From an uncultured Candidatus Saccharibacteria bacterium (GTDB taxonomy: Bacteria > Patescibacteriota > Minisyncoccia > UBA6257 > 1-14-0-10-40-38), in NCBI GenBank assembly GCA_964543265.1, contig CAZIWN010000003.1, positions 1 through 62,593 of the forward strand: a DNA stretch of 62,593 bases, given 5' to 3'. The translations under genes and the position numbers were made by a program. Under the pieces are notes generated by a model. That model was not told where the DNA came from, searched no databases, and saw nothing but the letters and a program-made list of their open reading frames with translations. This document shows positions 20,140-53,917 of this stretch, piece after piece. Every line of letters begins with the position of its first letter. Within the stretch, counting starts at the first letter, position 1.

Positions 20140-20147
20140 GTAGCTGT

Positions 20148-20730: not shown

Positions 20731-20755
20731 GGCCAAGTGTGGGTTGTTTTTTTAT
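20706..20755 (+). terminator. Intrinsic terminator after paralog 2
   Basis: 16-bp stem CAACCCACAATTGGCC / GGCCAAGTGTGGGTTG (one mismatch) followed by TTTTTTTATTTT. Confidence 0.75.
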
Positions 20756-20842
20756 TTTAATTTGCTTTTTTAATATTTCGAAAACATAATTATTTAGTCT
20801 CCCGGTTTCGAAAGACCTGCTGGATTCATGGAGGGGCGAACC

Positions 20843-20986: not shown

Positions 20987-21001
20987 TGAATGAACAGCTC
21001 T

Positions 21002-21044
21002 AGACCTCGATCCTGCCAAAGGCGTTTCGAGGTCTTATATTTTA
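21002..21044 (+). terminator. Intrinsic terminator after paralog 3
   Basis: AGACCTCGA / TCGAGGTCT stem, 16-nt loop, then TATATTTTA. Confidence 0.6.
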
Positions 21045-21096
21045 CAAAATCAATATAACTTACTACAATAACAATAATAGATTCCTTAAATAATAG

Positions 21097-33664: not shown

Positions 33665-34525
33665 TTATTTTATGTAGATATTTTTAGCTCCTTTAATCTC
33701 GAAATAAAGAGCGCATGAAGTATTGCTACCGGAGGAACCGACTTCCCCTATCTTGGTGCGCCTAGAGATAAAATCTCCAAGAGAAACTTTTATATTCTTT
33801 AAATAGCCGTAAATAGTCTTTGTTCCATTAGTGTGCTCTATTTCAATGAAGTTTCCTAGGTCTTTCTTTGAATAATTATCAGAAGAAATATTAGTAACAA
33901 CTCCTTCTGCACTATTTATGACGCTGGCTCCACAGGAACTTGAAACAACGACATAATTAAGAGTTTTATTTATCTCTGAAAGATTGCCTTTTAGGGGAGA
34001 ATCATAGTAACCAGTGATCGTTGGTAGTTTTACGGCTTCCGGCTCAAGAATTTCCGTTTTAGAAGGGATGGTTATTTCCGCGCCAACGCGCAAAACTCCA
34101 TTTTTTAATTCTGGATTACTGACAGTTAAATCTTTGGTTGTTAAACCAAAACTTGCGGCTATTTTCTTTAAGGTGTCACCCTTAGATATCTTGTAAACCT
34201 CAAAGCCTTTGCCAGAATTTGTCGAAAGTATTTTTGAATTAAAATTATTAACCGCTGTTCCAAAGAAATCTAATATTGGTGGGTCTATTTCATCTTCGGC
34301 ATCCTTATCTATGCCATAGATATTATCCATACTGCCAAAAGCAGTCCCGTCTTGGCTTAAAATTGCTAGTCCAGAGAACTTATTAAGCTTCTTAGATTCG
34401 GAGGACTTAATATAGTTGTTTCCCCCGAAAACGTCGCCAAAAAAGGCCAGATTGCCTACGATGCCCACAAAAAGCAAAAAAACCGATAGAACGGTTGTTA
34501 ATTTGAACTTATTCAGTTTTTGCAT
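33665..34525 (-). CDS. Membrane-anchored LysM plus M23-like peptidase domain protein
   Basis: N-terminal TM. LysM YKISKGDTLKKIAASFGLTTKDL. C-terminal M23-like HTNGTKTIYGYL...GEVGSSG. Confidence 0.65.
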   Translation of the reverse strand: MQKLNKFKLTTVLSVFLLFVGIVGNLAFFGDVFGGNNYIKSSESKKLNKFSGLAILSQDGTAFGSMDNIYGIDKDAEDEIDPPILDFFGTAVNNFNSKILSTNSGKGFEVYKISKGDTLKKIAASFGLTTKDLTVSNPELKNGVLRVGAEITIPSKTEILEPEAVKLPTITGYYDSPLKGNLSEINKTLNYVVVSSSCGASVINSAEGVVTNISSDNYSKKDLGNFIEIEHTNGTKTIYGYLKNIKVSLGDFISRRTKIGEVGSSGSNTSCALYFEIKGAKNIYIK

Positions 34526-34551
34526 TATCTTACTTATACACTAATACTATC

Positions 34552-36367: not shown

Positions 36368-37129
36368 ATGAGGCAAAAATTTGGACAGCATTTTTTAAAA
36401 AATCAGAATGCTGTTAAAAAAATAATAGATGGATTGGATATAAAACCCGGCGAAAAAATAGTTGAAATTGGACCAGGAGAGGGAGCGCTAACATATCCAC
36501 TCCTTAAAGAAATTCAGAGAAATAATGCTGAATTTTTAGGCATAGAGAAAGATCTTTTCTTAGCAGAAAAACTAGTAAAAGAAGGATTAAATGTGGTTGC
36601 AGCTGATGCTCTTGAGGAAATTCCAAAGATGGATGCGAATAATAAAAATTGGAAGCTTTGCGGAAATATTCCTTATTATATTTCTGGATTTCTTTTCAGA
36701 ACTATTAGCGAATTAGAGAATAGGCCCAAGAAAATTATCTTAATGATTCAACGCGAAGTAGCTGAAAGAATCACGGCTAATGCTCCTGAATTAAATATGC
36801 TCGCTGCATCTATTCAGGTTTGGGGAATTCCTAAAATAATTATGAAACTGGGTCCTGAAGATTTTTCTCCGAAACCAGAAGTTGATTCTGCAATAATTGA
36901 AATAGATCTAAAGCAAAATCAATTAAATTCTGATGAATTGAAAAAATATTACGAGACAATGAGAGCGATTTTTAAACAGCCGAGAAAAACCCTATATAAT
37001 AACCTAAGAGAACATTTCGAAGATCAAGATAGAATTAAAAAACTTCTCGAAAAATTGGAAATAAAATCAGAAGAAAGAGGTCAGAATTTGAGCATAGAGC
37101 AATTAATCCAGATATCTAAAGAGATTTAA
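36368..37129 (+). CDS. rsmA: 16S rRNA (adenine1518/1519-N6)-dimethyltransferase
   Basis: FGQHFL start, EIGPGEGALT SAM motif, GNIPYYIS. Confidence 0.85.
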   Translation: MRQKFGQHFLKNQNAVKKIIDGLDIKPGEKIVEIGPGEGALTYPLLKEIQRNNAEFLGIEKDLFLAEKLVKEGLNVVAADALEEIPKMDANNKNWKLCGNIPYYISGFLFRTISELENRPKKIILMIQREVAERITANAPELNMLAASIQVWGIPKIIMKLGPEDFSPKPEVDSAIIEIDLKQNQLNSDELKKYYETMRAIFKQPRKTLYNNLREHFEDQDRIKKLLEKLEIKSEERGQNLSIEQLIQISKEI

Positions 37130-38606
37130 AAATAGCTTGATAATTTAATCTTTCCAAAGGAGAGGAGTCGTCAGTTAAAATGAGATTATCTTGATTAAAT
37201 TCAATCTTTTTAATATTTTGCGTTAAAAAATTTATCGCTTTTGGATACGACGAAGAAATATTTTTTAATTTTTCTAAATTTATTTCATCATCACTAGCAA
37301 GAATAAAGTGGGATCCGGACGATAAATCTACTAAATAAGTATTTTTAAAAACTGAGGCGATTGTGTTGATTGTTGGATTAATTATTAATCCAGAATCTGA
37401 TCCGTCATAAATATTCATAGCCATCAAACCTCCTTTGGTTAATGACTTTTTAATGTGACTAAAGCTTTCGCGAGTATCTAAATAAAAAGGTGTCTCCCCC
37501 ATTCCCCTAAAGAGATCAACTTCCACTAGATCAAATTTTTCCTTGTTTTGGTTTAAAAACAATCTCGCATCTTGTATAGATATTTCTAAATTTTTTGCTT
37601 TATCTAGATGAAAAAAATCAAAACCCAGATCAACAACTTTCTTATCTATCTCAACAGCTTTTAAGCTGACTCCTGGAATATCTTTATAAAAATAAGGAAT
37701 AGTTCCAGCTCCTAGACCTAAAAGGAGAATGCGCTTTGAATCTTTTATAAAGGGAGAAACTTCAAACATATCATAAATATTAGCGCTTTCTTCATTGTTT
37801 TTATGATTATTGTTTTTATAAAAAACAGATTGAGCAAATAAAAAACCCTTATTGGATTTTAAAACATAGACATCTTTAAGATCTTTAATTTCTAAATATC
37901 CATATTGAGATTCTCCGGAATAAAGAATTGATTCGTCAATGTTTTTTTCCCTTAAAGAAAATAGACTTGGGAGAAAAATTAAGACAATTAAAATTTTGGA
38001 AGATAATTTGCTAAAAATTAAAATACATAAAAGAGCAAAGCAACCAAAATAAAAAAGGATAGACAACTTAACCCCCAAACTAGGAATTAGAAAAAAATTG
38101 GTTAAGAATATTGCAAATAACGAACCGAAGCTTCCCACTCCGTATATTTTCCCCGAATAAGAAACAGAATCCAGCCCCTTAACGCTCGCAATCTTCAAAA
38201 AATAAACAGAAAAAGAAGATAGGGCAAAGGACGGGATGAAGAGAGTGAATATAGCAGATAATACTACTCCCCACTCAAACCTATACAAGGATAGCGATTG
38301 CAAAATTTCATTGTAAAAGAGAGATATTAGTAAAAGCCAAAAATAGCCAATAATTGAAAAAATCTTAAAAAATATTTCAAAATTAGTTTTTTTAGAAAAA
38401 TAGCCACCCAAATAATAACCGACAGCAAATGAAAAAATAGAAACGCCTATAAGAGCACTTGAAACATAGACAGAATAACCAAAATATGGAGACAAAATTC
38501 TGAAACCTAAGATTTCTAAACCTATAGAAATGAAACCAGAAAGAAATGCTTTAAAAAACAGACTTATCCCGATATTGGAATTATTCATATGTGATATAAT
38601 TATCAT
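37116..38606 (-). CDS. Polytopic membrane protein fused to a spermidine-synthase-like methyltransferase-fold domain
   Basis: ~7 N-terminal TM segments, then LLLGLGAGTIP...VEIDKKV...VDLF. Confidence 0.6.
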   Translation of the reverse strand: MIIISHMNNSNIGISLFFKAFLSGFISIGLEILGFRILSPYFGYSVYVSSALIGVSIFSFAVGYYLGGYFSKKTNFEIFFKIFSIIGYFWLLLISLFYNEILQSLSLYRFEWGVVLSAIFTLFIPSFALSSFSVYFLKIASVKGLDSVSYSGKIYGVGSFGSLFAIFLTNFFLIPSLGVKLSILFYFGCFALLCILIFSKLSSKILIVLIFLPSLFSLREKNIDESILYSGESQYGYLEIKDLKDVYVLKSNKGFLFAQSVFYKNNNHKNNEESANIYDMFEVSPFIKDSKRILLLGLGAGTIPYFYKDIPGVSLKAVEIDKKVVDLGFDFFHLDKAKNLEISIQDARLFLNQNKEKFDLVEVDLFRGMGETPFYLDTRESFSHIKKSLTKGGLMAMNIYDGSDSGLIINPTINTIASVFKNTYLVDLSSGSHFILASDDEINLEKLKNISSSYPKAINFLTQNIKKIEFNQDNLILTDDSSPLERLNYQAIFKSL

Positions 38607-38633: not shown

Positions 38634-39440
38634 ATGAAGAAAATATTTTCTATATCGATAATCGCATTTTCGATCTTTTTGGGAATGATCATAATAGGTC
38701 GTTTTTCTACGTCTAAAGAAAAAAATAATGCCGAAGCTTTAAGCTACAAGGTTGTGACTGAAGATAAAAAAACCAAAGACGATAAAGGAAGATTTATCGA
38801 AAGCCTAGAGGATATAAAACCAACAAAACAAGATATCCCCACTGACAACACCGGCAGCTTAACTATACAAACAGACGGTAATATAACTAACCAAATTGCC
38901 AACCAGATAGCTCAAAAGATGATAGGTGGAGCTAAAGACCCAGACGCACTAATAAAAGACTTAAAATCTGGAGATCCTGAATCTGTGGGCGACGTATATG
39001 CAATAACTGGGCAAATAATTAATGAAAAATCAAAAGAAATAAATCCAGAGAACTTAAAACCTAAAGTAGATTTTAATCAATTAAATTTAATAACCGACAA
39101 CTCAAAGACTGCAAAAGAGAAGTACTTCTCTGATTTAGATTATGTTTTAAATTCTGAAATCAAAACTAATAAAACTGGAGACTTAAGCGCCAAAACATTG
39201 AATGATACTTATTTAAATATAGATTCTGTAATAAAAGATTTAAAAAATCTTAGAACTCCGAGTGATTTAGCGCAATTTCACAGCGAGGTGATTTCTGTTC
39301 TTGGAGGAATAAAAAATAGTATTTCTCAGCTAATAACAATCAATTCTGATCCGGCGAAACTTTTAATTATTCTATCTTCAATGGAAAAATTAAATAAAGA
39401 ATTTCAAGAATTATTTAAGGGTGCTAGTAAATTGATTTAA
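38634..39440 (+). CDS. T4SS-like cluster gene 1: N-terminally anchored orphan
   Basis: TM IIAFSIFLGMIIIG. The rest is hydrophilic with no recognised motif. Confidence 0.5.
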   Translation: MKKIFSISIIAFSIFLGMIIIGRFSTSKEKNNAEALSYKVVTEDKKTKDDKGRFIESLEDIKPTKQDIPTDNTGSLTIQTDGNITNQIANQIAQKMIGGAKDPDALIKDLKSGDPESVGDVYAITGQIINEKSKEINPENLKPKVDFNQLNLITDNSKTAKEKYFSDLDYVLNSEIKTNKTGDLSAKTLNDTYLNIDSVIKDLKNLRTPSDLAQFHSEVISVLGGIKNSISQLITINSDPAKLLIILSSMEKLNKEFQELFKGASKLI

Positions 39441-39441
39441 A

Positions 39442-40941
39442 ATGAAAAAAAGATTTTTAAAAATAATCTCCATAATATCGCTAGCATCACTTCTTTTGAT
39501 GTCTTTTTTTCCGGGAGGAAATTTAAAAGAAGTTTTTGAAACAAAAAAGGCGGAAGCGACACTACCGACTCTTGATTATGCCAATCTCGGAGTTGCCTTA
39601 ACGCATTTGATTGAATATATAGTTGACGTTCTTAAGGAAGCTGCCATTGCCGAACTTAAAAAACAAATATTAGATCAATTAGTAAACCAGGTCATTCAAT
39701 GGATACAGGGCGGAGGAAAACCTAAATTTGTAACAGATTTTGACGGTTTTTTGAAAGAGGCTGGTAATAATGCCGTTGGGCAATTCGCTGAGGATCTGGG
39801 TCTGGAATTTTTATGCAGTCCATTTAATTTACAACTAAGATTTGCCCTATTCCCTGTTGCAAAATTTGGAGGTAGTGGAAAATATTCATGCACACTGGAT
39901 ACAATAGTTGCTAATATCGAGGACTTTAAAAATGACTTTAGAAAGGGAGGGTGGATTGCTTTTGACCAATCCTATGAACCACAAAATAATTTCTATGGAG
40001 TATTAATAACTGCTAATATGGAGAAAAATTCTAAGATCGCAGAGGCAACATCGAAAGCAGTTAATGAAGTTAACCAAGCATCAGGATTTTTATCCAGCAA
40101 AGATTGCGAGGAAGACCCATCTTCTAGCGCGCCTGATGAAGATGGCGATGGTAAAAAAGGAGATATCTTATCTAAGTGCACAGTAACGACCCCCGGAAAA
40201 CAAATAGGAGATTTAACATCTAGAGCGCTTGGTAGCGATTTCGATTTTATAGTTAACGCAGATGGAGTTGGCCAATATGTGGCAGCGATAGCTGATGCAG
40301 CAATAAATAGCTTGATAATTTCTGGCGCCGAAGGACTTTTGGGAGCCAAAAATGGACGCCAAGGCCAAAATGTTCAGGCGGATCCTTGCTCTGGCTTAAC
40401 AGGAAGAGCGCTTGATGCTTGCAAAAATTATCAAAAAACCAGAGGGGCTGAAATTAGAGCACACATAGAATCATTAAAGGGTCAAATAAATCCTCAATTA
40501 GACAATAGAAAAGATGCGAAGAGTGAAATGACTTCTTACGTAGCAAAGTTAGATAATTACATAATAGATTTAAATATTATTAGCGGTAAAATCAATGCTC
40601 TAAGTTGCCCAAGTAAAACAAGTTATCTTAATGAAATAAAAACAGAAATAGATTACGCCAGCACGACTAGACAAGCTAAGTTGAACGAGTCCAGCGAAAA
40701 CGATCTCGTGATAAGTAATTTAGAAAATGCCTTGATTGATTTAGACGAGGTAGCGTCTTCAACAGATGAAGTTAAATTGGTGGATATAATTTCTAATGTT
40801 CAATCTTATATAAGCGACCCGCAACAGGGTGAGAAATTCTTAGAAAAACAAAAAACCGATTTAGCCACCCTAGAAACCAGAATAGACGATAAGCTAACCA
40901 GGTTTAATGGATTATTGAGTGATTGTGTGGCTGGAAGATAA
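39442..40941 (+). CDS. T4SS-like cluster gene 2: secreted 499-aa orphan
   Basis: Signal-like N-terminus, several Cys pairs, coiled-coil C-terminus. Starts 1 nt after gene 1. Confidence 0.5.
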   Translation: MKKRFLKIISIISLASLLLMSFFPGGNLKEVFETKKAEATLPTLDYANLGVALTHLIEYIVDVLKEAAIAELKKQILDQLVNQVIQWIQGGGKPKFVTDFDGFLKEAGNNAVGQFAEDLGLEFLCSPFNLQLRFALFPVAKFGGSGKYSCTLDTIVANIEDFKNDFRKGGWIAFDQSYEPQNNFYGVLITANMEKNSKIAEATSKAVNEVNQASGFLSSKDCEEDPSSSAPDEDGDGKKGDILSKCTVTTPGKQIGDLTSRALGSDFDFIVNADGVGQYVAAIADAAINSLIISGAEGLLGAKNGRQGQNVQADPCSGLTGRALDACKNYQKTRGAEIRAHIESLKGQINPQLDNRKDAKSEMTSYVAKLDNYIIDLNIISGKINALSCPSKTSYLNEIKTEIDYASTTRQAKLNESSENDLVISNLENALIDLDEVASSTDEVKLVDIISNVQSYISDPQQGEKFLEKQKTDLATLETRIDDKLTRFNGLLSDCVAGR

Positions 40942-40952
40942 TTAAAATAAAA

Positions 40953-43232
40953 ATGTTTCATAAATTACTAAAAAATAAAAAATTCATACTGGCCACAATA
41001 TTAATTGCTGGACTGTTTTTAATTTTTAGCACAAAAAGCGCTAATGCGTGCAATGTGTTCACTAATGGAACCGCGTGTATAGAGGAATTTGTAACCTACA
41101 TCATTCAAACTATTACTTATGCAATATTCTTCGTTTTAGGAAAAGCGATAAATCTTATTTCTCAATTTTTATTTCCTGTCGTCTATCTTGGCAATCAAGC
41201 GATAGGAAGTCCGTTAGTCAGGACCGGATTTAAAATTTGCCTACAGATAGCTAATCTTGGTTTTGTGGTTTCGATTATATATGTAGCTTTTGCAACAATA
41301 ACAAAGTTTAATGACTATAAGATAAAAGATTTTTTAATCAAACTCATAACAGCGGCTGTTCTTATAAATTTCAGCTTTGCCATGGCGGGAACAGTAATGG
41401 ATATAAGTAATGTGATTGGAAATTATTTTCTATCTAAGTCAATCCCGGGAGATGGAAATCTAGAAGGATTTTCAACACAAATGGCAAATGCTTTTAATTT
41501 GGGTAAACTTAATGCCGTTAAAGAGGGGCCAAACGAGGGATTTACAGATAACCTTTCGTCTCTAGGAAGATCTTTTTTGAATCTGATATTTTCTATGGGG
41601 CTTTCTATTTTTATAAGCATAATAGTTTTGCTTACGTTTATTGGCATTGTAGGAATGATGTTGGCGAGATATGTCTGGATGGTAATTCTTATAACTTGCA
41701 TGCCGATTATCTGGCTTTGTTATATGAGTCCGTTTCCAGAAATAAAAGGGTATTTCAATAAGTGGTGGAAAATGTTTTTGAAGTGGATATATTTTTATCC
41801 AGTCACAGCATTCTTTCTTTATCTTGCGCTACTAACAGCAACAAGCGTAACCAATGGAGCATCTAGCGCTGTTTATTCCCAAGGCTCAGCTCAAGAATTA
41901 AATAAAACGATATTAAATGAATCTGGATTGACTGGATTAATTGACGCAATACTTAAAGCAGCAATGTTTATGGCGGCGCTTTATCTTGGAAGCCAAGCTG
42001 GAGGAGGATTTATGAAGACAACAATGAGCTGGGCTAATGGGGCTAAAAATAAATTTGTAGGAACTTATAGAGCTATGGGAGGTGCTCCGATTAAGGGAGT
42101 AAAATATGTCGGCCAGGGAGCTAGAAGATACGGGACTTCGCTTTTAAGAACAGAGGGAAACTTATTTGGTAAAAAAATTCCGTTCATAGGGGGAAAACAA
42201 AATATAGAAGCCATGAAGTCTCTGGGGGGAGATATTAAAGGATTTAAGGGGGCTCTTTATAGAGGACTACTCAACGCAACGGGTATAAGACCAGCTGCTA
42301 GAGTGGTGGGTAATGCGCTAGAGGCAGCTTCTAGTGGAAAAAATATAAAAGCAGAAGCAGAAGCTAGATTGAAGGATAGATCTCATGATGATTTGGCTAG
42401 AAATTTCCCAACCTTAACCGATATAGAAAAAATGGTGGCAATAGAGCGAGCTAAGAAAGATGATAAATTAGACAAATATGATATGGTGGATTATTTAGCT
42501 AAAGCGAATAAAAATACTTGGGAAAAATTTGGCTCTACAAAAGACCTTGAAGCTATTGAAAAAAAGACTGGAATAAATCAAGAAATGGCTAAGGCTTTGC
42601 AAAATAAAGACGATGAGACTTATAAAAAAGCAATGACTGCGTTTTATTCTAAATTTAAGGAGGGCGACGTAAAGACATTAAGCGACGATGCCTCAAGGCA
42701 GGAATTTGATGAAACTGGTAAGAGTAAACTTCATAAGGCTCTCGGAAAGGATAACTTTAATGCCTTAAGAGATGGGATATCTGATGTCTTATTAAAGAAA
42801 TTCCCAAGCGCATACATAGGTAGAGTTATAAAAGATCTTCCAAACCTTAAAGCTGTTGACGCTTTTAAGGTAAGACTCATAACAACATCATCTCTAAGAT
42901 CGGAAATAGGTGGAATTGGATCTGATAAGGCTAAAGTGGATAAAATTACAGATTTACTACAATCAGCTGGGTTGATAACGAGCTTTAATAACGATGTAGA
43001 ATTAGACACCGCAAATAATCAATTTAAATTAAAGAAGCCAATAACAAAAGAAGAGCTTATCAAAAAATATGAAAATGAATCTGACCCAGTTAAAAAATCT
43101 GAAATAAATAAAGTAATAATGCACTTTTTAGAAAGTGATGATGCTAACGTTAGCAAGGCTTTAAATAGTGGAATAAATAAGAGACTAACCGGTTTCGTTG
43201 ATGACTCTGGAACAACTACGCAAAATCCATAA
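40953..43232 (+). CDS. T4SS-like cluster gene 3: VirB6/TrbL-like polytopic protein with a long hydrophilic C-terminal half
   Basis: ~8 TM in the first ~370 aa, then a ~390-aa soluble region. Start moved to ATG 40953 (MFHKLLKNKK). Confidence 0.55.
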   Translation: MFHKLLKNKKFILATILIAGLFLIFSTKSANACNVFTNGTACIEEFVTYIIQTITYAIFFVLGKAINLISQFLFPVVYLGNQAIGSPLVRTGFKICLQIANLGFVVSIIYVAFATITKFNDYKIKDFLIKLITAAVLINFSFAMAGTVMDISNVIGNYFLSKSIPGDGNLEGFSTQMANAFNLGKLNAVKEGPNEGFTDNLSSLGRSFLNLIFSMGLSIFISIIVLLTFIGIVGMMLARYVWMVILITCMPIIWLCYMSPFPEIKGYFNKWWKMFLKWIYFYPVTAFFLYLALLTATSVTNGASSAVYSQGSAQELNKTILNESGLTGLIDAILKAAMFMAALYLGSQAGGGFMKTTMSWANGAKNKFVGTYRAMGGAPIKGVKYVGQGARRYGTSLLRTEGNLFGKKIPFIGGKQNIEAMKSLGGDIKGFKGALYRGLLNATGIRPAARVVGNALEAASSGKNIKAEAEARLKDRSHDDLARNFPTLTDIEKMVAIERAKKDDKLDKYDMVDYLAKANKNTWEKFGSTKDLEAIEKKTGINQEMAKALQNKDDETYKKAMTAFYSKFKEGDVKTLSDDASRQEFDETGKSKLHKALGKDNFNALRDGISDVLLKKFPSAYIGRVIKDLPNLKAVDAFKVRLITTSSLRSEIGGIGSDKAKVDKITDLLQSAGLITSFNNDVELDTANNQFKLKKPITKEELIKKYENESDPVKKSEINKVIMHFLESDDANVSKALNSGINKRLTGFVDDSGTTTQNP

Positions 43233-43241
43233 AAAAATATA

Positions 43242-44138
43242 ATGATAAGAATACAAAAACAAGAAGCTGAAAAAAGATGGGGTGAATTATCCCCTACGTT
43301 AAGAGAGGCGCTTTTTAGCGAGGAAAATTCCAGCGTTGTTTTACAAGTATCTGGAGCAAAAAAATTAAATGAAAAACAGATAGAGTGGCTACTTGTTACA
43401 ACCGGAGACGTGATAATGGGATTTATTCCATTGGATCCGGTTAAAATTGCCGAAGAAATCTCTGAAAGAACTGGGATCGATAAACAAACGGCTTATGAAA
43501 TCTCTCAAGAACTAAGCAGAAAAATATTTGATAAATTAAAGTCCGAAATAGAAAATATTGGAATTGGGGCTTCTGTCATTTACAATAATTCATCGATAAA
43601 CTCGGATCAAACACAATCTATACCTAAGACTACAAATGAGTTTAGAAACATGATGAATGATAATCAAAACAAAATACAACCAGAGCCTGGTATTCAAAGA
43701 GGGCAGGCCATGCAAAATTTAGAAAGTAGATTGAGTGGTTATAATCAAGAATCTCGCCCAAGAGAGTTTTTAAATGAATTAACCAATGATAGAAATAAAA
43801 GATTTGAACAAAGCACGTTTAATAATCGTGGCGGTTTTTCAAACAACGCAAAAACGGAAGAAACTCACGAAGCTCCATTTATAATTCACGAAGAAAAACC
43901 TGTATTTTCCAAAGAGCAAACTGGTTTTAAAAAAGAGGAGTCCAACTCCCCTATGTCATATCAGCCCTTTAAAATCCAAGATGTTAAGCCACAAAAGGAA
44001 GCTCCTATATCTGCAAAAATAGACTTTGGAGAAGAAAAGCCTCGCAAAGCTTCGCCTTGGGATGATAAAGATAAAGACGACAATATAAGAGTAGTTCACT
44101 ATAGCGATTTTAAATCGATGCCAAAAAAACAGAGTTAG
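43242..44138 (+). CDS. T4SS-like cluster gene 4: hydrophilic orphan
   Basis: 298 aa, N/Q/E/K-rich, no TM. Confidence 0.45.
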   Translation: MIRIQKQEAEKRWGELSPTLREALFSEENSSVVLQVSGAKKLNEKQIEWLLVTTGDVIMGFIPLDPVKIAEEISERTGIDKQTAYEISQELSRKIFDKLKSEIENIGIGASVIYNNSSINSDQTQSIPKTTNEFRNMMNDNQNKIQPEPGIQRGQAMQNLESRLSGYNQESRPREFLNELTNDRNKRFEQSTFNNRGGFSNNAKTEETHEAPFIIHEEKPVFSKEQTGFKKEESNSPMSYQPFKIQDVKPQKEAPISAKIDFGEEKPRKASPWDDKDKDDNIRVVHYSDFKSMPKKQS

Positions 44139-44151
44139 CTGACTCTGTTTT

Positions 44152-44619
44152 TTATCGATAATCAATTCTGTGAGCTCGGCGAATTTCTCCAGTGGTTTTT
44201 CTTAAATCTTCTTCCGATTCCCTACCCTTAAAAATCTTTGAAGATTTTTCCCTGGTTCCAATTGGGTTTGATGAGGTTGATATTTTAAGAAATAAATCTT
44301 TAAGAGGATTGGATGACTGGCTTGGTTTTTGGACAATCTTGCCCTCTTTTTTCCACAAAAAAGATCTTGGATGCCAAAGATAGTTAAAAGCAGCAAGTAC
44401 AATTTTTGTAGCAGGAACTCCATTAAACTTTCCGAAAGCTAGAATAACAGCAACTAATCCTAAAAATATGGAAATGATTATCCAAAGCCAAAATTGAAGA
44501 ATATAAAAAAGAATTATAGAGATAACGACGGCCGTGGCGATGTAAAAAAACTGCTTTATAGTAAGCGGACCAACTATTTTAGGAGAAACGTCTATAAATT
44601 GAGGGACCTGAAATTGCAT
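44152..44619 (-). CDS. PrgI/VirB3-like small membrane protein
   Basis: MQFQVPQFIDVSPKIVGPLTIKQFFYI followed by two TM segments, as in PrgI-family proteins. It is the only minus-strand gene in the cluster. Confidence 0.55.
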   Translation of the reverse strand: MQFQVPQFIDVSPKIVGPLTIKQFFYIATAVVISIILFYILQFWLWIIISIFLGLVAVILAFGKFNGVPATKIVLAAFNYLWHPRSFLWKKEGKIVQKPSQSSNPLKDLFLKISTSSNPIGTREKSSKIFKGRESEEDLRKTTGEIRRAHRIDYR

Positions 44620-44723
44620 ATTAGCTTAATTATACAACAATTAAACAAATACTAAATAATAGAGCGCAAATTTCAACAAATTTTGAAGTTAAAAAATATA
44701 TAGGTGTGTTATAATTTTATGTA

Positions 44724-45404
44724 ATGAATAAGGGCGAGGCATTTCCTACACAATCTCTTTTAGATATAGAAGACATAAAAGACAATACCGTTATTTTAAA
44801 AGGCGGGAAAATGCGCCAGATCTTGGCTGTTTCTGGGATGAATTTTGATTTGAAATCAAAAGAAGAACAGGAAGGAATAATTGGCTCATTTCAATCTTTT
44901 TTAAATTCTTTAAAATTCACGGCTCAAATATTTATACACTCTAGAAAAATAAACATAGATAGTTATTTGGAAAAATTAATAGACTTGGAGCAAAGAGAAG
45001 AAAATGAACTTTTAAGAAATTTAATAGCTGATTATAGGGATTTTATAAAATCATTTATTAAAGACAACGCAATAATGAATAAATCTTTTTTTGTGGTTGT
45101 TCCCTACGACACAGTATCCCTATCCTCAGCAACGGAAGGCGTTTCAAAGATTTTTGGAATTTTTGGAAAAAAGGAAAATAGCGAAGAAAAATCTCAAAGT
45201 CAGCAATTAGAAACAATGGAAAAGGATAAGCAATTAAGAGCCCATATCGAACAAATAACCCAAAGGACTAATCAAGTTATAGGAGTTTTAAATCAGGCAG
45301 GGCTCCGAGCCATACAATTAAACGACGACGAGTTGGCTGATCTTTTTTACAATATTTACAATCCAGATGCTATGGAGAAAAAAGATATATTAAAAGCTAA
45401 TTAA
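44724..45404 (+). CDS. VirB4-like ATPase, N-terminal-domain fragment as a separate ORF
   Basis: LLDIEDIKDNTVILKGGKMRQILAVSGMNFDLKSKEEQEGII resembles the N-termini of Gram-positive VirB4/TcpF/Orf16-type ATPases. It stops 8 nt before the ATPase ORF, in a different frame. Confidence 0.5.
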   Translation: MNKGEAFPTQSLLDIEDIKDNTVILKGGKMRQILAVSGMNFDLKSKEEQEGIIGSFQSFLNSLKFTAQIFIHSRKINIDSYLEKLIDLEQREENELLRNLIADYRDFIKSFIKDNAIMNKSFFVVVPYDTVSLSSATEGVSKIFGIFGKKENSEEKSQSQQLETMEKDKQLRAHIEQITQRTNQVIGVLNQAGLRAIQLNDDELADLFYNIYNPDAMEKKDILKAN

Positions 45405-45412
45405 ATAAAAAA

Positions 45413-47116
45413 ATGGAAAGCGATAAAATAAAAAATTTAATAGCTCCACCAGCACTAGAGGTTAATTCTAATTATTTAAAAATTGGAGATAAATATGCTA
45501 AAACTTTTTTTGTCTTTACGTATCCTAGGTTTTTAAATACTGGATGGTTTTCCCCCATCATCAACATGCCTAATTTGCTTGATATCTCTATATATATAAG
45601 CCCCACAGATCAAGCTCTGGCATTGAAAGACTTAAAGAAGAAATCTGCGCAAGTTCAGGCGCAAATGATGATGAATCAAGAAAAGGGACTGGTGAGAGAC
45701 CCGATGCTTGAAACAGCAATTAATGATATTGAAAACTTAAGAGATTCCCTACAACAAGGGCAAGAATCTATATTTTCTTTGGGAATATATATAACGATAT
45801 ATGCAAATGATCAAAAAGAATTAAAACAACTAGAGGGAGATGTTACTAGTTTACTTGAGTCTAGATTGGTTTACTCAAAACCGGCTATTTTTCAACAAAT
45901 GGAGGGATTTACCACGGTTATTCCGCTAGAAAATGATAAGTTAAATATAACAACAACGTTTAACACTGGGCCGCTGTCGTCTATTTTCCCTTTTATATCC
46001 ATAAATTTAACATCTGATACAGGAATTCTTTATGGAATAAATCGACACAATAATACCCTGGTTATTTTTGATAGATTTAGTTTGGAAAACTCTAATTTAG
46101 TTATTTTTGCTAAATCAGGATCTGGTAAATCGTATACGACAAAATTAGAAGCAATAAGACTTTTAATGACCGGAACAGATGTGATTATTATTGATCCTGA
46201 AAATGAATACGAAAGACTAGCTGAAGCTGTTGGTGGAAGTTTCTTTAGAATATCCTTAACTTCCCCACACCACATAAATCCATTCGATATTCCAGTAATC
46301 CCCCATGGAGAAGATCCAGCTGACGTGCTTAGAAGCCATATAGTAAATATGACTGGGCTTTTAAAATTAATGCTTGGAAAGATGGAGGTTGAAGAAGAGG
46401 CCATGCTTGATAGGGCCATAACAGAAACATATGCCTCAAGAGAAATAGTGCCGGGAAAAGATTTTTCAAATAAACAACCACCGCTATTACAAGATTTGGA
46501 ATCGATACTGCGAAATATGGAGGGCGGAAAATCTATAGCTGAAAGACTTTATAAATATACAAAAGGAAGCTATGCCGGATTTTTGAATGATTACTCTAAT
46601 GTTGATATTAAAAACAGAATGATTGTGTTTTCTATACGCGACCTAGAAGATGAATTGAGGCCAGTTGCTATGTATATAGTGTTAAATTTCGTATGGAATC
46701 TTGTCCGCTCACAATTAAAGAAAAGGGTTCTTATAATAGACGAGGCGTGGTGGATGATGAAGTATGAAGATGGAGCATCTTTCTTATTTGGATTAGTTAA
46801 GAGAGCTAGAAAATATTTCTTGGGAGTAACAACTATTACTCAAGATGTTGAGGACTTTTTAAAATCTCCTTACGGGAGACCAATTATTACTAACTCATCG
46901 CTACAAATACTTTTAAAACAAGCGCCAGTAATGATTGAGGCACTAAGCAAGACATTTAATTTAACCGAAACCGAAAAAAGCGTGCTTTTAGATGCTGAAG
47001 TCGGCCAAGGATTATTCTTTGCGGGATTAAACAGAGTGGCAATTCAAGTGGTTGCTTCTTATTTGGAAGATAAAATAATAACCACTAAACCGGAACAAAT
47101 ACTTCAGGGATTGTAA
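45413..47116 (+). CDS. VirB4-type (AAA_10-like) secretion ATPase
   Basis: Walker A KSGSGKS (GSGKS at 46118-46132), Walker B VLIIDEAWWM, TITQDVEDF. Confidence 0.75.
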   Translation: MESDKIKNLIAPPALEVNSNYLKIGDKYAKTFFVFTYPRFLNTGWFSPIINMPNLLDISIYISPTDQALALKDLKKKSAQVQAQMMMNQEKGLVRDPMLETAINDIENLRDSLQQGQESIFSLGIYITIYANDQKELKQLEGDVTSLLESRLVYSKPAIFQQMEGFTTVIPLENDKLNITTTFNTGPLSSIFPFISINLTSDTGILYGINRHNNTLVIFDRFSLENSNLVIFAKSGSGKSYTTKLEAIRLLMTGTDVIIIDPENEYERLAEAVGGSFFRISLTSPHHINPFDIPVIPHGEDPADVLRSHIVNMTGLLKLMLGKMEVEEEAMLDRAITETYASREIVPGKDFSNKQPPLLQDLESILRNMEGGKSIAERLYKYTKGSYAGFLNDYSNVDIKNRMIVFSIRDLEDELRPVAMYIVLNFVWNLVRSQLKKRVLIIDEAWWMMKYEDGASFLFGLVKRARKYFLGVTTITQDVEDFLKSPYGRPIITNSSLQILLKQAPVMIEALSKTFNLTETEKSVLLDAEVGQGLFFAGLNRVAIQVVASYLEDKIITTKPEQILQGL

Positions 47117-47143
47117 TAATAAAATCTGTTATTATTACTATAA

Positions 47144-47608
47144 ATGGAAGAAGAGATTAAACCGAGACTTTCTGGGACAGAAGCCTATTTTTTAATAGCT
47201 TTTGCCTTGATTGCCGACCTTATAAATTGGATACCAGTGATAAACATCATCACAACAGTTGTTACTGCTGCTTTTTTTCAATTTTATTTCTTTATAAGAA
47301 AGGTAAAAGGGGCTCAATGGAGCTTAATTGGAAACATAATAGAATTTATACCAGTGGCCAGCGTTTTACCGGCGATAACGGCTGGAGTTGTGGGAACAAT
47401 TATAGCGGATAGAATCCAAGCGAAAATTGATAATAAGATGGCGCAGACCGATTCTTTAAAAGAGCCTGATTTAGGATATAATTATAAAGATATAGAAGAC
47501 CAACAAGAGGAAGATGTTGAGGTTGAGAATGGTGCGGAAGAAAATGAAGAAAAAAACGAAGGCGAGCCGACAGAGGAAGAATCTGTTCAAGAATCTATAA
47601 AAAAATAA
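47144..47608 (+). CDS. T4SS-like cluster: 3-TM protein with an acidic tail
   Basis: Three hydrophobic segments, then an E/D-rich C-terminus. Confidence 0.5.
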   Translation: MEEEIKPRLSGTEAYFLIAFALIADLINWIPVINIITTVVTAAFFQFYFFIRKVKGAQWSLIGNIIEFIPVASVLPAITAGVVGTIIADRIQAKIDNKMAQTDSLKEPDLGYNYKDIEDQQEEDVEVENGAEENEEKNEGEPTEEESVQESIKK

Positions 47609-47620
47609 TTAGAAGCTTTA

Positions 47621-48307
47621 ATGAAATTTTTTAAAATAGCTATTTTAGTAATAAGTATAGTATTACCGGCTGTTTTTTATCATGAAACATCTTTCAGCGC
47701 AGTTTCTAATCCGGAAATAGTAATGACATGGAAAGCTAATAGCTTTATCCCCCACTGGTACAAAGGAAAAGCTATGCCCATCAGAAATTCTGAAATAAAG
47801 GCGGGTCTACTTTTAACAGACAATGGGAAGGTTGTGGATTTGTCTAGGTATGAAATAAGATGGATCGGCGATAATGGAATTTTTGAAAAAGGAATTGGAT
47901 TGGTTAATTTAAGTTTTAAATTAAATAAATTAATTTCGGAACCACAAAACTTAACAGCCACAGTTGTTGGATATAATGGTCAAAACATAAAGAAAACAAT
48001 GTCTATACCGGTAGTGGTGCCAGAAATTTCTGTGGATACTAATTTAAATTCTTCTCTCGTAAAAGATGGTGGATTGGCTTTATTAAGAGCAGTCCCACTA
48101 TTTTTTAACATAAATAAAGAATCTGATATTAATGTTAAATGGAATTTAAACAATAAATCATTAGCTAGTGAGTCGGCTGACGGATTAATAGAGTTAAATG
48201 TGCCGAAATTTGGAATGGAAGCATTTACCATAGACCTAACTGCAAACAATAAGCTTCAGGAGTTGGAAATTGCATCCACTGAAAAATATTTCAATATAAT
48301 AAAATAA
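47621..48307 (+). CDS. T4SS-like cluster: secreted 228-aa orphan
   Basis: Signal/anchor IAILVISIVLPAVFY. Beta-rich-looking remainder. Confidence 0.5.
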   Translation: MKFFKIAILVISIVLPAVFYHETSFSAVSNPEIVMTWKANSFIPHWYKGKAMPIRNSEIKAGLLLTDNGKVVDLSRYEIRWIGDNGIFEKGIGLVNLSFKLNKLISEPQNLTATVVGYNGQNIKKTMSIPVVVPEISVDTNLNSSLVKDGGLALLRAVPLFFNINKESDINVKWNLNNKSLASESADGLIELNVPKFGMEAFTIDLTANNKLQELEIASTEKYFNIIK

Positions 48308-49116
48308 TGCTTAAAAATAAATTTCTAAGAAAATATTTAGTATTGATGTTGTTTTTTTTGTTATTTGTATCTATAAAGCAAAGCGTTTTAGCTATTGAAT
48401 ATAAAACACAATTATCTGTTCCGATACCGGTTGATTGCGACATACTCCCATCTTCAGGGCAATTAGATCCTGGTTGTGAAAAAAAAGAGATTGGAGGATT
48501 GGTTGATATTGTGACAACGATGTATAGGTTTGCCGTTGGGGCTGGAACGTTTTTAGCCATAATAATGATTGTAATAGGAGGAATACAATATACGGCCTCT
48601 GAAGTTGTTGGATCTAAAGAAGATGCAAAGAAAAAAATTCAAAATGCGATATATGGATTGATATTACTTGCAGTATCTATACCAATTCTTAAATTTATAA
48701 ATCCGCAGATCACACTATTAAGCGATAGCGACATAGGAGATGTCGGAGAAATAAAATCGAGCTACGGAACAACATCGGAACCAAGCCTTTGCGGAACGTC
48801 TCTTGCGTGCTCGCCTATTGGATCTGTACTTATAGATAAAGATTATGACGTGGTGAGGGGTTGTGGCTCTGATTGTAGATTTGTAGAACTAGATGGCGAT
48901 GCTGAAGATTATTACGATGGAGATATAGATGGATATAAAGAGAAGAATAGGTGCGGAACACCGATATCTCAATGCACGAGCTTAAATACTATAATAAATC
49001 AATCCACGACAACTTTCCCGGATGGAGAAATAGTTGTGCAAACCGACTTTTGCTCACTAAACTGCACAATCAGGCACTACTTTGATAGGACAAGTATGAA
49101 AAATAAAACCGAATAA
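48307..49116 (+). CDS. T4SS-pilin-like (VirB2/TrbC-type) protein with a Cys-rich C-terminal extension
   Basis: Signal, then the hydrophobic hairpin GAGTFLAIIMIVIGGIQY...KKKIQNAIYGLILLAVSIPILKF, then ~125 aa with 8 Cys. Confidence 0.55.
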   Translation: MLKNKFLRKYLVLMLFFLLFVSIKQSVLAIEYKTQLSVPIPVDCDILPSSGQLDPGCEKKEIGGLVDIVTTMYRFAVGAGTFLAIIMIVIGGIQYTASEVVGSKEDAKKKIQNAIYGLILLAVSIPILKFINPQITLLSDSDIGDVGEIKSSYGTTSEPSLCGTSLACSPIGSVLIDKDYDVVRGCGSDCRFVELDGDAEDYYDGDIDGYKEKNRCGTPISQCTSLNTIINQSTTTFPDGEIVVQTDFCSLNCTIRHYFDRTSMKNKTE

Positions 49117-49120
49117 AAAA

Positions 49121-50248
49121 ATGAAAAAAATAATTTTAATAGTTTTGATTTTTATTGTTTTATTTGGCGGATTTTACTTCTTTTATATGCGCGGCGGGGA
49201 GGTTTTAAATAATGAAACGCAAAACAATAATCTTCCAGGGTCTTCAACTACTCAAAACAATAAACCAAATTCAAACACCACAAAAACTACGACTTCAAAA
49301 TATAAAAAAATAGCTGGTGATGTTTTTGCTTATTCGATAAAAGATGATGGTGTTTATTATGTAAGAAATGATGGAAAAATTTATTTTTTAGAAGGAAGCC
49401 TTGATCCTCAAGAGATTTCTAATTATGGGATAGATAATTTGTCGGAAATAAAAATATCTTCTGACAATAGCTACTTATTGGCCTCCTACAGAGACAATAA
49501 CAACTATAAGTTCCCTTATTTTGATTTTAAAAAGAGGGAGTGGACTCCGTTGCCAGACGGAATAATATCTGCGGATATTAGCCCAACATCTAAAGAATTA
49601 ATTTATTTATTAGAAAAGAGCTCTGGAAATGTTCTTTATATTAAAGATCTCGTAAAAAATCAAACAAAAGAACTTGCAAAAATTAATTTGAGCGATGTTG
49701 ATTTAAAATGGCTTGATGCTCAAAGAATTGTTTTTATGGAAAAAGAATCAAGAAATATCGCGTCTAGGATCTGGTTGTTTAATTTAAAAACAAAAGAACT
49801 TCAATTAATAAATGGAAATGGAGAAAAAAGATTGCTAGTGAATTGGTTTAATAATAATGCTTTTGCTTTAAAATTTTCGGAAAAAGATCAAAAGGGATCA
49901 CTTTCTTTTATAAATAAAGATTTGATTGAAATATCTCAAGAATCTCTCTCAACTCTGCCAAATAAATGCGGATATTTAAACGATAAAACGATGCTTTGTG
50001 GAGTTTTTAAAGAAATTCCGGCTGGAGTTTTTTTGCCCGATGATTATATGAAGAAAAGTTTTTATTCTGATGATGATCTTTATTTATGGAATCCTTCAAC
50101 TGGAAACAAAAAAATGATTCCGACAGGAATAATTAGCCAAATTGACATTACTCAAATAAGGGCAACTGGAACTAAAGCGTATTTTGTAAATAGATTCGAC
50201 AACTCATTGTATCAAATAAATATTGCTGAGTATTTAAGCAATCCCTAA
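49121..50248 (+). CDS. TM-anchored beta-propeller-like (TolB/WD40-like) protein
   Basis: N-terminal TM, N/T-rich linker, then repeated beta-strand-like segments. Confidence 0.4.
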   Translation: MKKIILIVLIFIVLFGGFYFFYMRGGEVLNNETQNNNLPGSSTTQNNKPNSNTTKTTTSKYKKIAGDVFAYSIKDDGVYYVRNDGKIYFLEGSLDPQEISNYGIDNLSEIKISSDNSYLLASYRDNNNYKFPYFDFKKREWTPLPDGIISADISPTSKELIYLLEKSSGNVLYIKDLVKNQTKELAKINLSDVDLKWLDAQRIVFMEKESRNIASRIWLFNLKTKELQLINGNGEKRLLVNWFNNNAFALKFSEKDQKGSLSFINKDLIEISQESLSTLPNKCGYLNDKTMLCGVFKEIPAGVFLPDDYMKKSFYSDDDLYLWNPSTGNKKMIPTGIISQIDITQIRATGTKAYFVNRFDNSLYQINIAEYLSNP

Positions 50249-50275
50249 TACATAAAGAATAAGTGGTTCTTAAAT

Positions 50276-50307
50276 AAAAATACCGCAATTGTAATCGCGG
50301 TATTTTT
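50276..50307. terminator. Bidirectional terminator closing the cluster
   Basis: AAAAATACCGC-10 nt-GCGGTATTTTT between convergent genes. Confidence 0.7.
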
Positions 50308-50309
50308 AT

Positions 50310-50738
50310 TTATATAGGCCTTACAACAACGCAACGATCTCTACCCTCTCCACTGCTTTCTGTCTTAACATCTGGTCGAACAGCTAGCTCTGTGTGGACA
50401 ATGCGCCTCTCATAAGCGTTCATAGCGGGAAGGCGAACCTCTGATTTTTGACTAGAGGCACGCCTAGCGGCTGCCTTTGCAAGCTCTATGATTAATTTTT
50501 CTCTTTCTTTTTTGTAACCATTAACGTCTATTAGAAAATACTCCATTCCAGCCTTCTTGGCCATGAGGCGAATAATACAATCTAAATTAAAAATAAGTTC
50601 TGGCAACCACTTTTTAATCCAATTACCTTCATTTACAAAAATATCTATGTGGCGGCCTTCAAAATCTATATTAACCGTAGGCTCAGAGAGTCCTAGAAGA
50701 TTTAAGATATTTTCTATTTGTAATTTAAAGCTTTCCAT
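50310..50738 (-). CDS. jag: Jag/KhpB-like R3H RNA-binding protein
   Basis: R3H ERRIVHTEL, downstream of yidC. Confidence 0.8.
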   Translation of the reverse strand: MESFKLQIENILNLLGLSEPTVNIDFEGRHIDIFVNEGNWIKKWLPELIFNLDCIIRLMAKKAGMEYFLIDVNGYKKEREKLIIELAKAAARRASSQKSEVRLPAMNAYERRIVHTELAVRPDVKTESSGEGRDRCVVVRPI

Positions 50739-51813: not shown

Positions 51814-51948
51814 CTAAACAGCTAACCTTTTTCTACCCTTTTGTCGCCTAGCTTTTAACACGCGTCTTCCGCCATATGTTCTGGATCTCTTTAAAAATCC
51901 GTGAGTTCTTCTCCTTTTCTTCTTGCTTGGCTGATAAGTTTGAGACAT
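51814..51948 (-). CDS. rpmH: 50S ribosomal protein L34 (below the ORF-track cut-off)
   Basis: Hand translation gives [44 protein letters not shown]. Confidence 0.9.
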
Positions 51949-52289
51949 TTTTTAAAAAAACGTAATTATTACTAATGGATAGATAATAATCATTTTGTCG
52001 GGAAAAATCAACCCTGAGCTATTTTGCGAACATTAAATTTATACATTATTTTTAAGAAACGACAAGACTATTATTTTGTTAAAAAAGTTATTAACATGAT
52101 ATCAACAGATTATTAAGGAAAATTTTTTTGACTTAAGCCGTCGAAAGAATAGACTGATTAATATATAGGTTTATTCTCTTGTTGTAGAAAAAATATTTTT
52201 TATTTTGAGGATGAATCTGATTGATTTTGTATCGCAGAAAATGAGATCTAGTCGAAACGTGGGTAATTATAAAAAATAATTTTAAATTA

Positions 52290-53654: not shown

Positions 53655-53917
53655 TTTAAGAATTAGAAAAATATTGAAATGAAAATATTTGAAATGTAAA
53701 TTGTTTATAAGATGTTTAAAGTTTGTTAAGTTCTTAAGTATAAAATGTTTATTATTTAGAAATTTATAAAACTATAAACAAGTTACTAGAAAAATATTAA
53801 GAGAAGTTAACATGGGTTGTTAGTGAAAGTATGTTTTATAAATAAAGATAATTCCGAGTTTTACATAGAGTTATTAGTCCCCTATTACTACTACAAGTTA
53901 ATTATATATATATATAA
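53655..53917. other. Candidate oriC (dnaA-dnaN spacer)
   Basis: Several TGTTTATAA / TTATAAACA-like 9-mers (53702-10, 53746-54, 53772-80) differ from the TGTGGATAA consensus only at the central GG. (TA)n AT-rich tract at 53895-53915. Confidence 0.4.

Follow-up and report, generated by a model that had tools for sequence, protein, structure and literature searches.

Type IV secretion systems (T4SSs) of the Patescibacteria are believed to be the basis of the obligately epibiotic or parasitic life led by a very large part of bacterial diversity. A study of 3,035 Patescibacteria genomes by Quinonero-Coronel et al. (2025) described a monophyletic VirB4 clade nested in MPF_FATA, with TrsD as the most frequent partner of VirB4, accompanied also by PrgI/VirB3, VirB6 and VirB2-like pilins; relaxases were nearly absent (109 in 103 genomes), and dnaA, dnaN, rnpA, rpmH and ksgA were enriched near virB4 in Paceibacteria and Microgenomatia, the architecture and its closeness to dnaA being described for 2,417 Patescibacteria genomes (PMC12102498). 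Transposon sequencing (Tn-seq) by Wang et al. (2023) showed that the T4SS of Saccharibacteria, which has no coupling protein and no relaxase, is essential for epibiotic growth together with its pilins, a requirement known for S. epibionticum only (PMC10633639). A review of 2025 speculated on a pilus conduit in these systems (PMC12857230), and a 2026 preprint reported tubular structures, possibly T4SS pili, at a parasite–host interface (bioRxiv 10.64898/2026.06.21.733656). The present study concerns a cluster of eleven genes (g1–g11, Table 1) on a stretch of 62,593 nucleotides (nt) from an ultra-small Patescibacteria bacterium (Paceibacteria type), recorded as an uncultured Candidatus Saccharibacteria bacterium (assembly GCA_964543265.1, contig CAZIWN010000003.1), the whole of which is called the window below. 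The cluster is, with near certainty, a vertically inherited chromosomal T4SS of the Patescibacteria clade, of the Paceibacteria type, derived from monoderm MPF_FATA conjugation machinery.

Relationship to described T4SSs

The cluster shares with other T4SSs of the Patescibacteria clade a monoderm-type VirB4, a separate TrsD-like open reading frame (ORF), PrgI/VirB3, VirB6 and a VirB2-like pilin, as well as the lack of a relaxase or coupling protein (T4CP) nearby and a chromosomal position beside dnaA, dnaN, rnpA, rpmH and ksgA. This architecture, the absence of DNA-processing genes and the proximity to dnaA were already published between 2023 and 2025, and the cluster is an ordinary member of the group; an earlier note on this DNA, which had called such clusters only sketchily characterised, was outdated in this respect (PMC10633639, 2023; PMC12102498, 2025). 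What is new is the recognition of six supposed orphans as conserved components in a fixed order, with g11 TolB-like and g9 weakly Ig-like, of a large g2 family without a Pfam model, of a variable and often Cys-rich extension of the pilin, and of an inversion of the PrgI gene together with the insertion of a major facilitator superfamily (MFS)/spermidine-synthase gene, found in the window lineage alone. In the two papers the six accessory families apparently stand as unannotated grey genes (PMC12102498, PMC10633639). The cluster also differs from the systems described there in having no peptidase or lysozyme gene directly downstream of virB4 and, in contrast to the six-gene pilin array of Saccharibacteria (S. 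epibionticum SEML1_0006–0019), only one pilin, whose C-terminal extension is long.

HMM searches clearly support the assignment of the motor. The ATPase g7 scored 386 bits against NF045971 (VirB4-like conjugal transfer ATPase, CD1110 family equivalog; cut-off 325, E 3.3e-115) and matched P-loop_TraG (1.7e-29), AAA_10 and DUF87 in Pfam; its Walker A (GSGKS) and Walker B (VLIIDEAWWM) motifs, as well as the topologies described for the cluster proteins in the earlier note, agree with that description. The affinity is to MPF_FATA, with 3e-42 to PrgJ of pCF10 versus 1e-4 to TrwK of R388. More than 8000 homologues of g7 were found below E 1e-30; the top 120 are 70–100% identical and, where the source is named, come from Patescibacteria, Parcubacteria or Paceibacterota, the identity of VirB4 across many Patescibacteria being 70–96%. 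The preceding g6 matched NF041427 TrsD/TraD (5.1e-11), the N-terminal 200 residues of the VirB4 model and the TraC-like PF26593. Both proteins also matched NF045975 of the Mycoplasma integrative conjugative element (ICE), with 40 bits for g6 and 299 bits for g7, below the curated cut-offs. The PrgI assignment of g5 was likewise above the cut-off of its model (PF12666, 33.5 bits, cut-off 27, E 6.4e-8), and its single long hydrophobic stretch fits two helices.

The division of VirB4 between two ORFs could be taken for a pseudogene or a frameshift, but this was ruled out, since the split is the norm: g6 is an ORF of its own in 76 of 78 loci and is fused to VirB4 in the other two. Fused VirB4 forms of 780–809 amino acids (aa) occur among homologues with 70–75% identity.

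Comparison with three better-known groups outlines the position of the cluster. With the MPF_FATA systems (pCF10 Prg/Pcf, pGO1 Trs, CTn2 CD1110) it has in common VirB4 at the CD1110 level, PrgI and TrsD homologues, and the lack of outer-membrane core proteins and of VirB11; it differs in having no detectable relaxase, T4CP (PcfC), PrgK-type hydrolase, PrgL/VirB8-like protein or adhesin, in the presence of a VirB2-type pilin, which these systems lack, and in an extended VirB6 (759 aa versus 266 aa in PrgH). The Mycoplasma ICE has a pilin-like protein (Mbov_0395) beside VirB4 (Mbov_0397), so a wall-less MPF_FATA lineage combines these two components as well, but these ICEs are mobile and carry a DDE transposase and DNA-processing genes, which are absent from the block in the window. 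With the MPF_T systems (R388 Trw, Agrobacterium VirB) the cluster shares the VirB2–VirB3–VirB4–VirB6 logic of pilus biogenesis, and the g3 model superposes on TrwI/VirB6; the VirB7, VirB9 and VirB10 proteins of the outer-membrane complex, VirB11 and VirD4 are missing, VirB4 is only distantly related (1e-4), and the counterpart of VirB5 would be g2, as a weak lead.

The eleven tightly packed ORFs, ten of which lie on the + strand and only g5 on the − strand, were all recovered in an ORF check of the window, as the earlier note had listed them. Pfam was run on every large non-overlapping ORF of the window and NCBIfam on a subset; in addition, all ORFs of at least 50 aa were searched by phmmer with TrwB and TrwC (R388), PcfC and PcfG (pCF10), the Tn916 integrase and two VirB8 proteins. 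No relaxase, T4CP, VirB11 or integrase was found in the 62.6-kb window or in 85 related loci, and the VirB8 queries likewise matched nothing in either, whereas the VirB4 positive controls matched every locus. No transposase domain was found among the scanned ORFs of the window, and no att- or oriT-like repeats were found there above chance level. The GC content of the cluster (0.32–0.37) is the same as that of its flanks, with no GC island. The absences listed in the earlier note, of relaxase, VirD4-type coupling protein, VirB11, integrase and oriT-like repeat, were all confirmed; its conclusion that the cluster is a secretion or pilus machine and not a conjugative element was borne out by the conserved site, the flank-like GC content and the lack of DNA-processing genes.

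The only ATPase with a PF00437 domain in the window (59014–60738, + strand, 574 aa) was considered as a VirB11 candidate and rejected, as its scores against GspE/PilB-type models (1e-124 to 1e-127) are far stronger than that against VirB11 (5e-13); it belongs to a type IV pilus or type II secretion system. Its gene, flanked by yebC-ruvC and ruvB, lies on the downstream side of the cluster at a distance of 9 kb.

Conservation of the cluster was assessed with a VirB4-alignment scan using one genome per GTDB species, which yielded 579 confirmed loci, the best 80 of which were kept; the ORFs of these loci, many of which are cut off by contig ends, were compared by iterative profile searches, for which the eleven proteins of the window and the genes flanking them served as queries. 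All 80 loci belong to metagenome-assembled genomes (MAGs) of Patescibacteria, with titles naming Harrison-, Jorgensen-, Nomura-, Kaiser-, Azam-, Zambryski-, Taylor-, Specht- or Portnoybacteria or Paceibacterota; many of these MAGs carry the generic submitter label 'uncultured Saccharibacteria'. The recurrent order is uvrD-rsmA-1-2-3-4-5-6-7-8-9-10-11-(jag)-yidC-rnpA-dnaA-dnaN-pbp1. In 22 species-level genomes the eleven genes are complete and follow this order, most of the remaining 58 have partial copies, and the neighbourhood of dnaA, dnaN, rnpA, rpmH and ksgA recurs in 43 loci. That the block keeps its site amid core genes in dozens of species points to a chromosomal operon that is old and has been inherited vertically, not to a mobile element.

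Two changes are confined to the lineage of the window. The − strand orientation of the PrgI gene g5 is restricted to the window and near relatives of it (loci L001 and L082–L085; VirB4 96% identical; GCA_009694925.1 'Ca. Pacebacteria', GCA_943354155.1), whereas the 73 other loci carrying the gene have it on the + strand. A fused MFS/spermidine-synthase gene (37116–38606, − strand; NF037959, 1e-41) is inserted between rsmA and g1; it was found in none of the 80 genome-scan loci, but is present in the near relatives L082, L083 and probably L085. In near relatives a small 23S_rRNA_IVP or GIY-YIG gene, absent from the window, stands beside the inverted PrgI gene (L082, 8249–9161; L085, 6883–7699), which suggests a small insertion or inversion event.

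Components of the predicted machine

The pilin g10 exceeds the cut-off of the T4SS_pilin model (PF18895, 28.6 bits, cut-off 26.6, E 1.5e-6), in agreement with the earlier note. It contains a signal peptide and two transmembrane helices, with the core at approximately aa 68–137, and a Cys-rich C-terminal extension of 132 aa; in 72 orthologues its length lies between 2 and 478 aa (median 176), and a high Cys content is frequent. Matches to NF045849, the pilin-like conjugal transfer protein Mbov_0395 of the Mycoplasma ICE, were obtained for 22 of 30 pilin orthologues (best E-value 8.5e-8, presumably all below the 40-bit cut-off), a hint that the pilin is possibly part of the MPF_FATA heritage.

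Two relatives show unusual pilins. In L019 (12134–12946, + strand) the pilin, with its core at aa 34–104, bears an M23 peptidase domain (aa 166–263) fused at the C-terminus; one member of the pilin alignment A10, which did not include L019, also matched peptidoglycan-hydrolase models. L077, a Spechtbacterales relative, possesses four tandem pilin genes (3746–9938) with very Cys-rich extensions (11–22 Cys), resembling the pilin arrays reported for Saccharimonadia and Microgenomatia.

With a polytopic membrane part of about 350 aa, joined by a disordered linker to a hydrophilic, folded domain of some 290 aa at the C-terminus, the 759-aa protein g3 qualifies as an 'extended VirB6' as the term is used in PMC12857230. 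The start at ATG 40953 is the most likely one, because the copy of the protein in the database is 759 aa long. The earlier note had called this protein VirB6/TrbL-like, which a database label and a structural match support. A precomputed database label assigns g3 and its orthologues to PF19590 TrbL_3, but our own hmmscan against Pfam, made with g3 and 20 homologues, gave no TrbL or VirB6 match, and the g3 profile found among PDB sequences only low-complexity matches (TolA, SMC), which were dismissed as meaningless. The AlphaFold2 model has a mean predicted local distance difference test score (pLDDT) of 68.5, with the transmembrane and C-terminal domains well above 80. The top three Foldseek matches of this model are the R388 TrwJ/TrwI (VirB5/VirB6) stalk chains 8rt9_F, 8rtd_L and 7o3v_G (E 0.015–0.06, probability 1.0, target TM-score 0.41–0.50); the matched chains were taken as TrwI/VirB6, since their length and helical content fit. 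The hhalign comparison ranked PrgH and TrwI first and second of 25 targets, at only 7–13% probability.

The remaining six proteins belong to unnamed families. The earlier note had regarded more than half of the components as orphans, which was overstated, as all six are conserved families at fixed positions in related loci. Comparison of all cluster profiles with the Prg/Pcf proteins of pCF10 and the Trw proteins of R388 (hmmsearch, hhalign) gave only VirB4 as significant; these targets were single sequences, so the sensitivity was low. The hydropathy profiles indicate a single N-terminal hydrophobic segment in each of g1, g2, g9 and g11 and no transmembrane segment in g4, g6 and g7.

Among these families that of g2 is especially large, with 5,450 representative clusters at E<=1e-3 and 2,291 at <=1e-30. 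In this protein a conserved N-terminal domain is followed by a helical bundle at the C-terminus, and the g2 profile found no match in the PDB. The AlphaFold2 model, made with an alignment of 15 sequences, is confident only for residues 320–499, the conserved N-terminal domain having pLDDT below 50. The Foldseek search with this low-confidence model returned generic helical bundles, among which pKM101 TraC/VirB5 (1r8i) ranked seventh (E 0.12), while hhalign against TrwJ gave a probability of about 1%; a VirB5-like role of g2 may be considered as a weak lead from modelling.

No match to Pfam, NCBIfam or PDB profiles was obtained for g1 or g4, nor could relatives of g1, g4 and g8 be detected among proteins of known structure or the T4SS proteins of pCF10 and R388. 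The first 100 aa or so of g4 form a conserved helical domain, after which comes a low-complexity tail; the protein is probably a cytoplasmic accessory. In g8 two hydrophobic stretches were resolved and three transmembrane helices estimated; its conserved motifs include D in the first helix, KGV and E-x-IP...LP, and neither hmmsearch nor hhalign revealed similarity to PrgF or other pCF10 and R388 proteins.

The last two families show affinities to known folds. The g9 profile matched the Ig-like protein Hoc of phage T4 (0.0027), and a few orthologues weakly matched Ig_3, Big_2 or BiPBP_C; the window protein, with 228 aa, is shorter than its orthologues (about 330 aa). The earlier description of g11 as a beta-propeller-like protein was supported by a match of its profile to TolB structures (8e-7). 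Its orthologues carry PD40 in 3/26 cases and PG_binding_1 in 3/26, which suggests a cell-wall-associated scaffold.

The window offers a clean and complete example of the Paceibacteria type and a parts list of fixed 'hypothetical' genes, in which the g2 family, the TolB-like propeller, the Ig-like protein, the membrane protein with probably three helices and the variable domain of the pilin are targets for structural and genetic work.

Proposed function and rival explanations

Taken as a whole, the cluster is best explained as a known Patescibacteria T4SS, a VirB4-powered pilus for contact and exchange with a host and not for conjugation; we put the probability of this explanation at about 0.7. 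In Gram-negative systems VirB4 is needed for pilus biogenesis, and VirB6 is the stalk on which the pilin assembles; the R388 structure of Mace et al., from 2022, reportedly shows such a VirB6 stalk for pilin assembly. For the cluster studied here, assembly of a VirB4-driven pilus with a displayed pilin domain is moderately probable. The split VirB4 (g6 and g7), the only motor, would dock on the membrane via PrgI/VirB3 (g5), and the extended VirB6 (g3) would form a membrane platform or stalk; the motor would then pull the VirB2-type pilin (g10) from the membrane into a polymerised pilus, on the surface of which the variable, Cys-rich C-terminal domain of the pilin would be displayed. The proteins g1, g2, g8, g9 and g11 may represent lineage-specific envelope parts that take the structure through the cell wall, with g4 as a cytoplasmic accessory. 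As to the role of such a pilus, homology with the Saccharibacteria systems would point to contact and exchange of material with a host cell, not conjugation, and here we consider the chances to be even.

Several points weigh against this explanation. The pilus of Paceibacteria-type clusters is a prediction from gene content, and display of the pilin extension on the surface assumes a VirB2-like topology. The VirB6 assignment of g3 rests on a marginal Foldseek E of 0.015 and the precomputed label, direct tests by hmmscan and hhalign being negative or weak, and the roles of g1, g2, g4, g8, g9 and g11 were deduced only from conservation, position and topology. VirB8-like and VirB1-like proteins were not found in the cluster by hmmsearch, hhalign or phmmer. 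Homologues of VirD4 occur in 2,918 genomes, mostly far from virB4 (PMC12102498); the search for a T4CP covered the 62.6-kb window, and such a protein may be encoded elsewhere in the genome, with substrate transfer through the coupling protein.

A bolder, unlikely proposal is that g1, g2, g4, g8, g9 and g11 make up an envelope module peculiar to Paceibacteria, in place of VirB5, VirB8 and VirB1, that the pilus is a conduit importing host macromolecules, and that the pilin is ancestral to MPF_FATA. In such a module g2 would sit on the extended VirB6 as a stalk or tip protein similar to VirB5, and g11, with a peptidoglycan-binding domain in some orthologues, would fix the machine to the wall. The hypervariable, Cys-rich C-terminal domain of the pilin, which in one relative is an M23 peptidase, might serve as a displayed module for host specificity or for breaching the wall, and the pilin would be common to MPF_FATA and the Mycoplasma ICEs and not borrowed from diderm systems.

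A rather improbable alternative, although compatible with the pilus model and not mutually exclusive with it, is an exporter of toxins or protein effectors to the host cell or the medium, in which the pilin would merely form a short channel or an adhesin. Wang et al. proposed that the system 'may instead export proteins' (PMC10633639), exporters without a T4CP are known (Ptl and the Brucella VirB system; PMC12102498, PMC12857230), and the hydropathy of several cluster proteins marks them as secreted. No recognisable effector-like, toxin or chaperone gene was, however, found in or beside the cluster, and the fixed order of all eleven genes resembles that of structural parts.

It is very unlikely that the cluster encodes a DNA-uptake machine, by which the cell would obtain nucleotides or genes from the DNA of its host. 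The ComB system of H. pylori, a DNA-importing T4SS without relaxase and T4CP, counts in favour of this possibility, as does the lack of nucleotide synthesis in Patescibacteria. The archaeal Ced system is another such importer (cited in PMC12102498), and g7 gave weak NCBIfam matches to CedB (2.7e-11) and CedD (1.7e-6); these are far below the cut-offs and appear to reflect generic P-loop similarity. Moreover, no ComEC or DprA-type gene is present in the cluster; the competence of S. epibionticum needs type IV pili and ComEC, and deletion of comEC ends transformation but not viability, whereas the T4SS is essential (PMC12857230, PMC10633639).

An ICE, intact or degraded, that transfers DNA with a relaxase and T4CP that were missed, divergent or encoded elsewhere is hardly credible: VirB4, PrgI and TrsD are indeed homologous to conjugation proteins of pCF10, pGO1, CTn2 and the Mycoplasma ICEs, and many Patescibacteria genomes have T4CP homologues far from virB4 along with the few relaxases mentioned above (PMC12102498), but against it stand the lack of any relaxase, T4CP, integrase or att repeat in the 62.6-kb window and the 85 related loci, the GC content equal to that of the flanks, a chromosomal site between core genes shared by dozens of species, which an ICE would not be expected to keep, and the finding that in S. 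epibionticum the T4CP is non-essential and the T4SS essential (PMC12102498).

Gene layout and surroundings of the cluster

The coordinates of the genes and of the putative transcription signals are given in Table 1.

Table 1. Genes and signals of the T4SS cluster in the window, with the number of related loci in which each gene was found.
Feature	Position	Strand	Description	Loci with gene
g1	38634..39440	+	268 aa; one N-terminal transmembrane helix (residues 1-27), helical extracytoplasmic part; first gene of the block	36
g2	39442..40941	+	499 aa; secreted or anchored, 8 Cys	45
g3	40953..43232	+	extended VirB6/TrbL-like polytopic membrane protein; ORF open from TTG 40923	57
g4	43242..44138	+	298 aa; hydrophilic, without transmembrane helix	59
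hairpin	44130..44153		CAGAGT-TAGCTG-ACTCTG then TTTTTT; spans the g4 stop codon and abuts the g5 stop; read from the sequence	
g5	44152..44619	-	PrgI/VirB3-like protein with two transmembrane helices	74
g5/g6 divergent intergenic region	44620..44723		extended -10-like TGTGTTATAAT at 44706-44716	
g6	44724..45404	+	TrsD-like; VirB4 N-terminal domain as its own ORF	78
g7	45413..47116	+	VirB4-type ATPase; Walker A 46118-46132, Walker B 46727-46756	81
g8	47144..47608	+	154 aa; small membrane protein, acidic tail	48
g9	47621..48307	+	228 aa; secreted or anchored, beta-rich, weakly Ig-like	70
g10	48307..49116	+	VirB2-type T4SS pilin; signal peptide, two-helix core, Cys-rich C-terminal extension	66
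g11	49121..50248	+	membrane-anchored (transmembrane) TolB/PD40-like beta-propeller; last gene of the block	57
inverted repeat I21	50271..50312		20 nt, 2-nt loop, 95% complementary; between convergent g11 and jag	

The hairpin is likely a terminator between the convergent g4 and g5, but it was not in the output of the consensus terminator scan; the inverted repeat downstream of g11 is likely a bidirectional terminator that closes the block. These two elements imply that in this lineage the cluster is probably transcribed as g1–g4, g5 and g6–g11. The extended −10-like TGTGTTATAAT, a consensus match only, ends 7 nt before the ATG of g6, and its position could mean a leaderless or very-short-leader transcript for g6–g11. 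The counts of promoter-like and terminator-like matches in the consensus scan were at chance level, and an Rfam search revealed no RNA family within the cluster.

The core genes that the earlier note had named as flanks were correctly identified. In the window, uvrD-rsmA and the spermidine-synthase-like gene lie upstream, with rsmA at a distance of 1.5 kb, and jag-yidC-rnpA-rpmH-dnaA-dnaN downstream, with rpmH (51814–51948) and dnaA at 1.6–2 kb. The note had also placed the machine close to the origin of replication. The position beside dnaA agrees with this, but no cluster of DnaA boxes, searched for with the E. coli consensus, was found in the window, including 51949–53917, and proximity to the origin is inferred only from the presence of dnaA. 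The cumulative GC-skew minimum (34000–35000) lies away from dnaA, at a switch of the coding strand at about 34.5 kb, where the M23 peptidase gene on the − strand meets uvrD on the + strand; the GC skew follows the coding strand.

This peptidase, a LysM + M23 protein recognised by Pfam and NCBIfam (33665..34525, − strand), is encoded outside the cluster, 4 kb upstream, and a homologue is present upstream of rsmA/uvrD in L003, L008, L009, L019 and L043. VirB1-like proteins with M23/LysM domains are known in Patescibacteria (PMC12102498); the protein is possibly a VirB1-type wall hydrolase partner of the T4SS or a plain housekeeping enzyme.

Outside the cluster the window contains housekeeping genes, namely those for an ABC transporter, a sigma factor, RNase Y, iPGM, RNase J, aminoacyl-tRNA synthetases, SmpB and tmRNA, IF3, PolX, a Mur ligase, RuvA, RuvB, RuvC, UvrD, RsmA, Jag, YidC, RnpA, L34, DnaA, DnaN, PBP1 and YebC. 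The tmRNA gene (tag ANQFRQTITANNSVSRMPAFALA) is located near smpB, with one unannotated ORF between them (19789–20139, − strand, and 18438–18875, + strand). The region of about 950 nt that follows (20140–21096) has slightly raised GC content, contains no ORF of at least 90 aa and gave no Rfam match. A class I aminoacyl-tRNA synthetase of 1170 aa (13162–16674, − strand; tRNA-synt_1 and Anticodon_1) carries an unusual insertion, a His_Phos_1 domain (residues 499–664) that sits between its catalytic halves.

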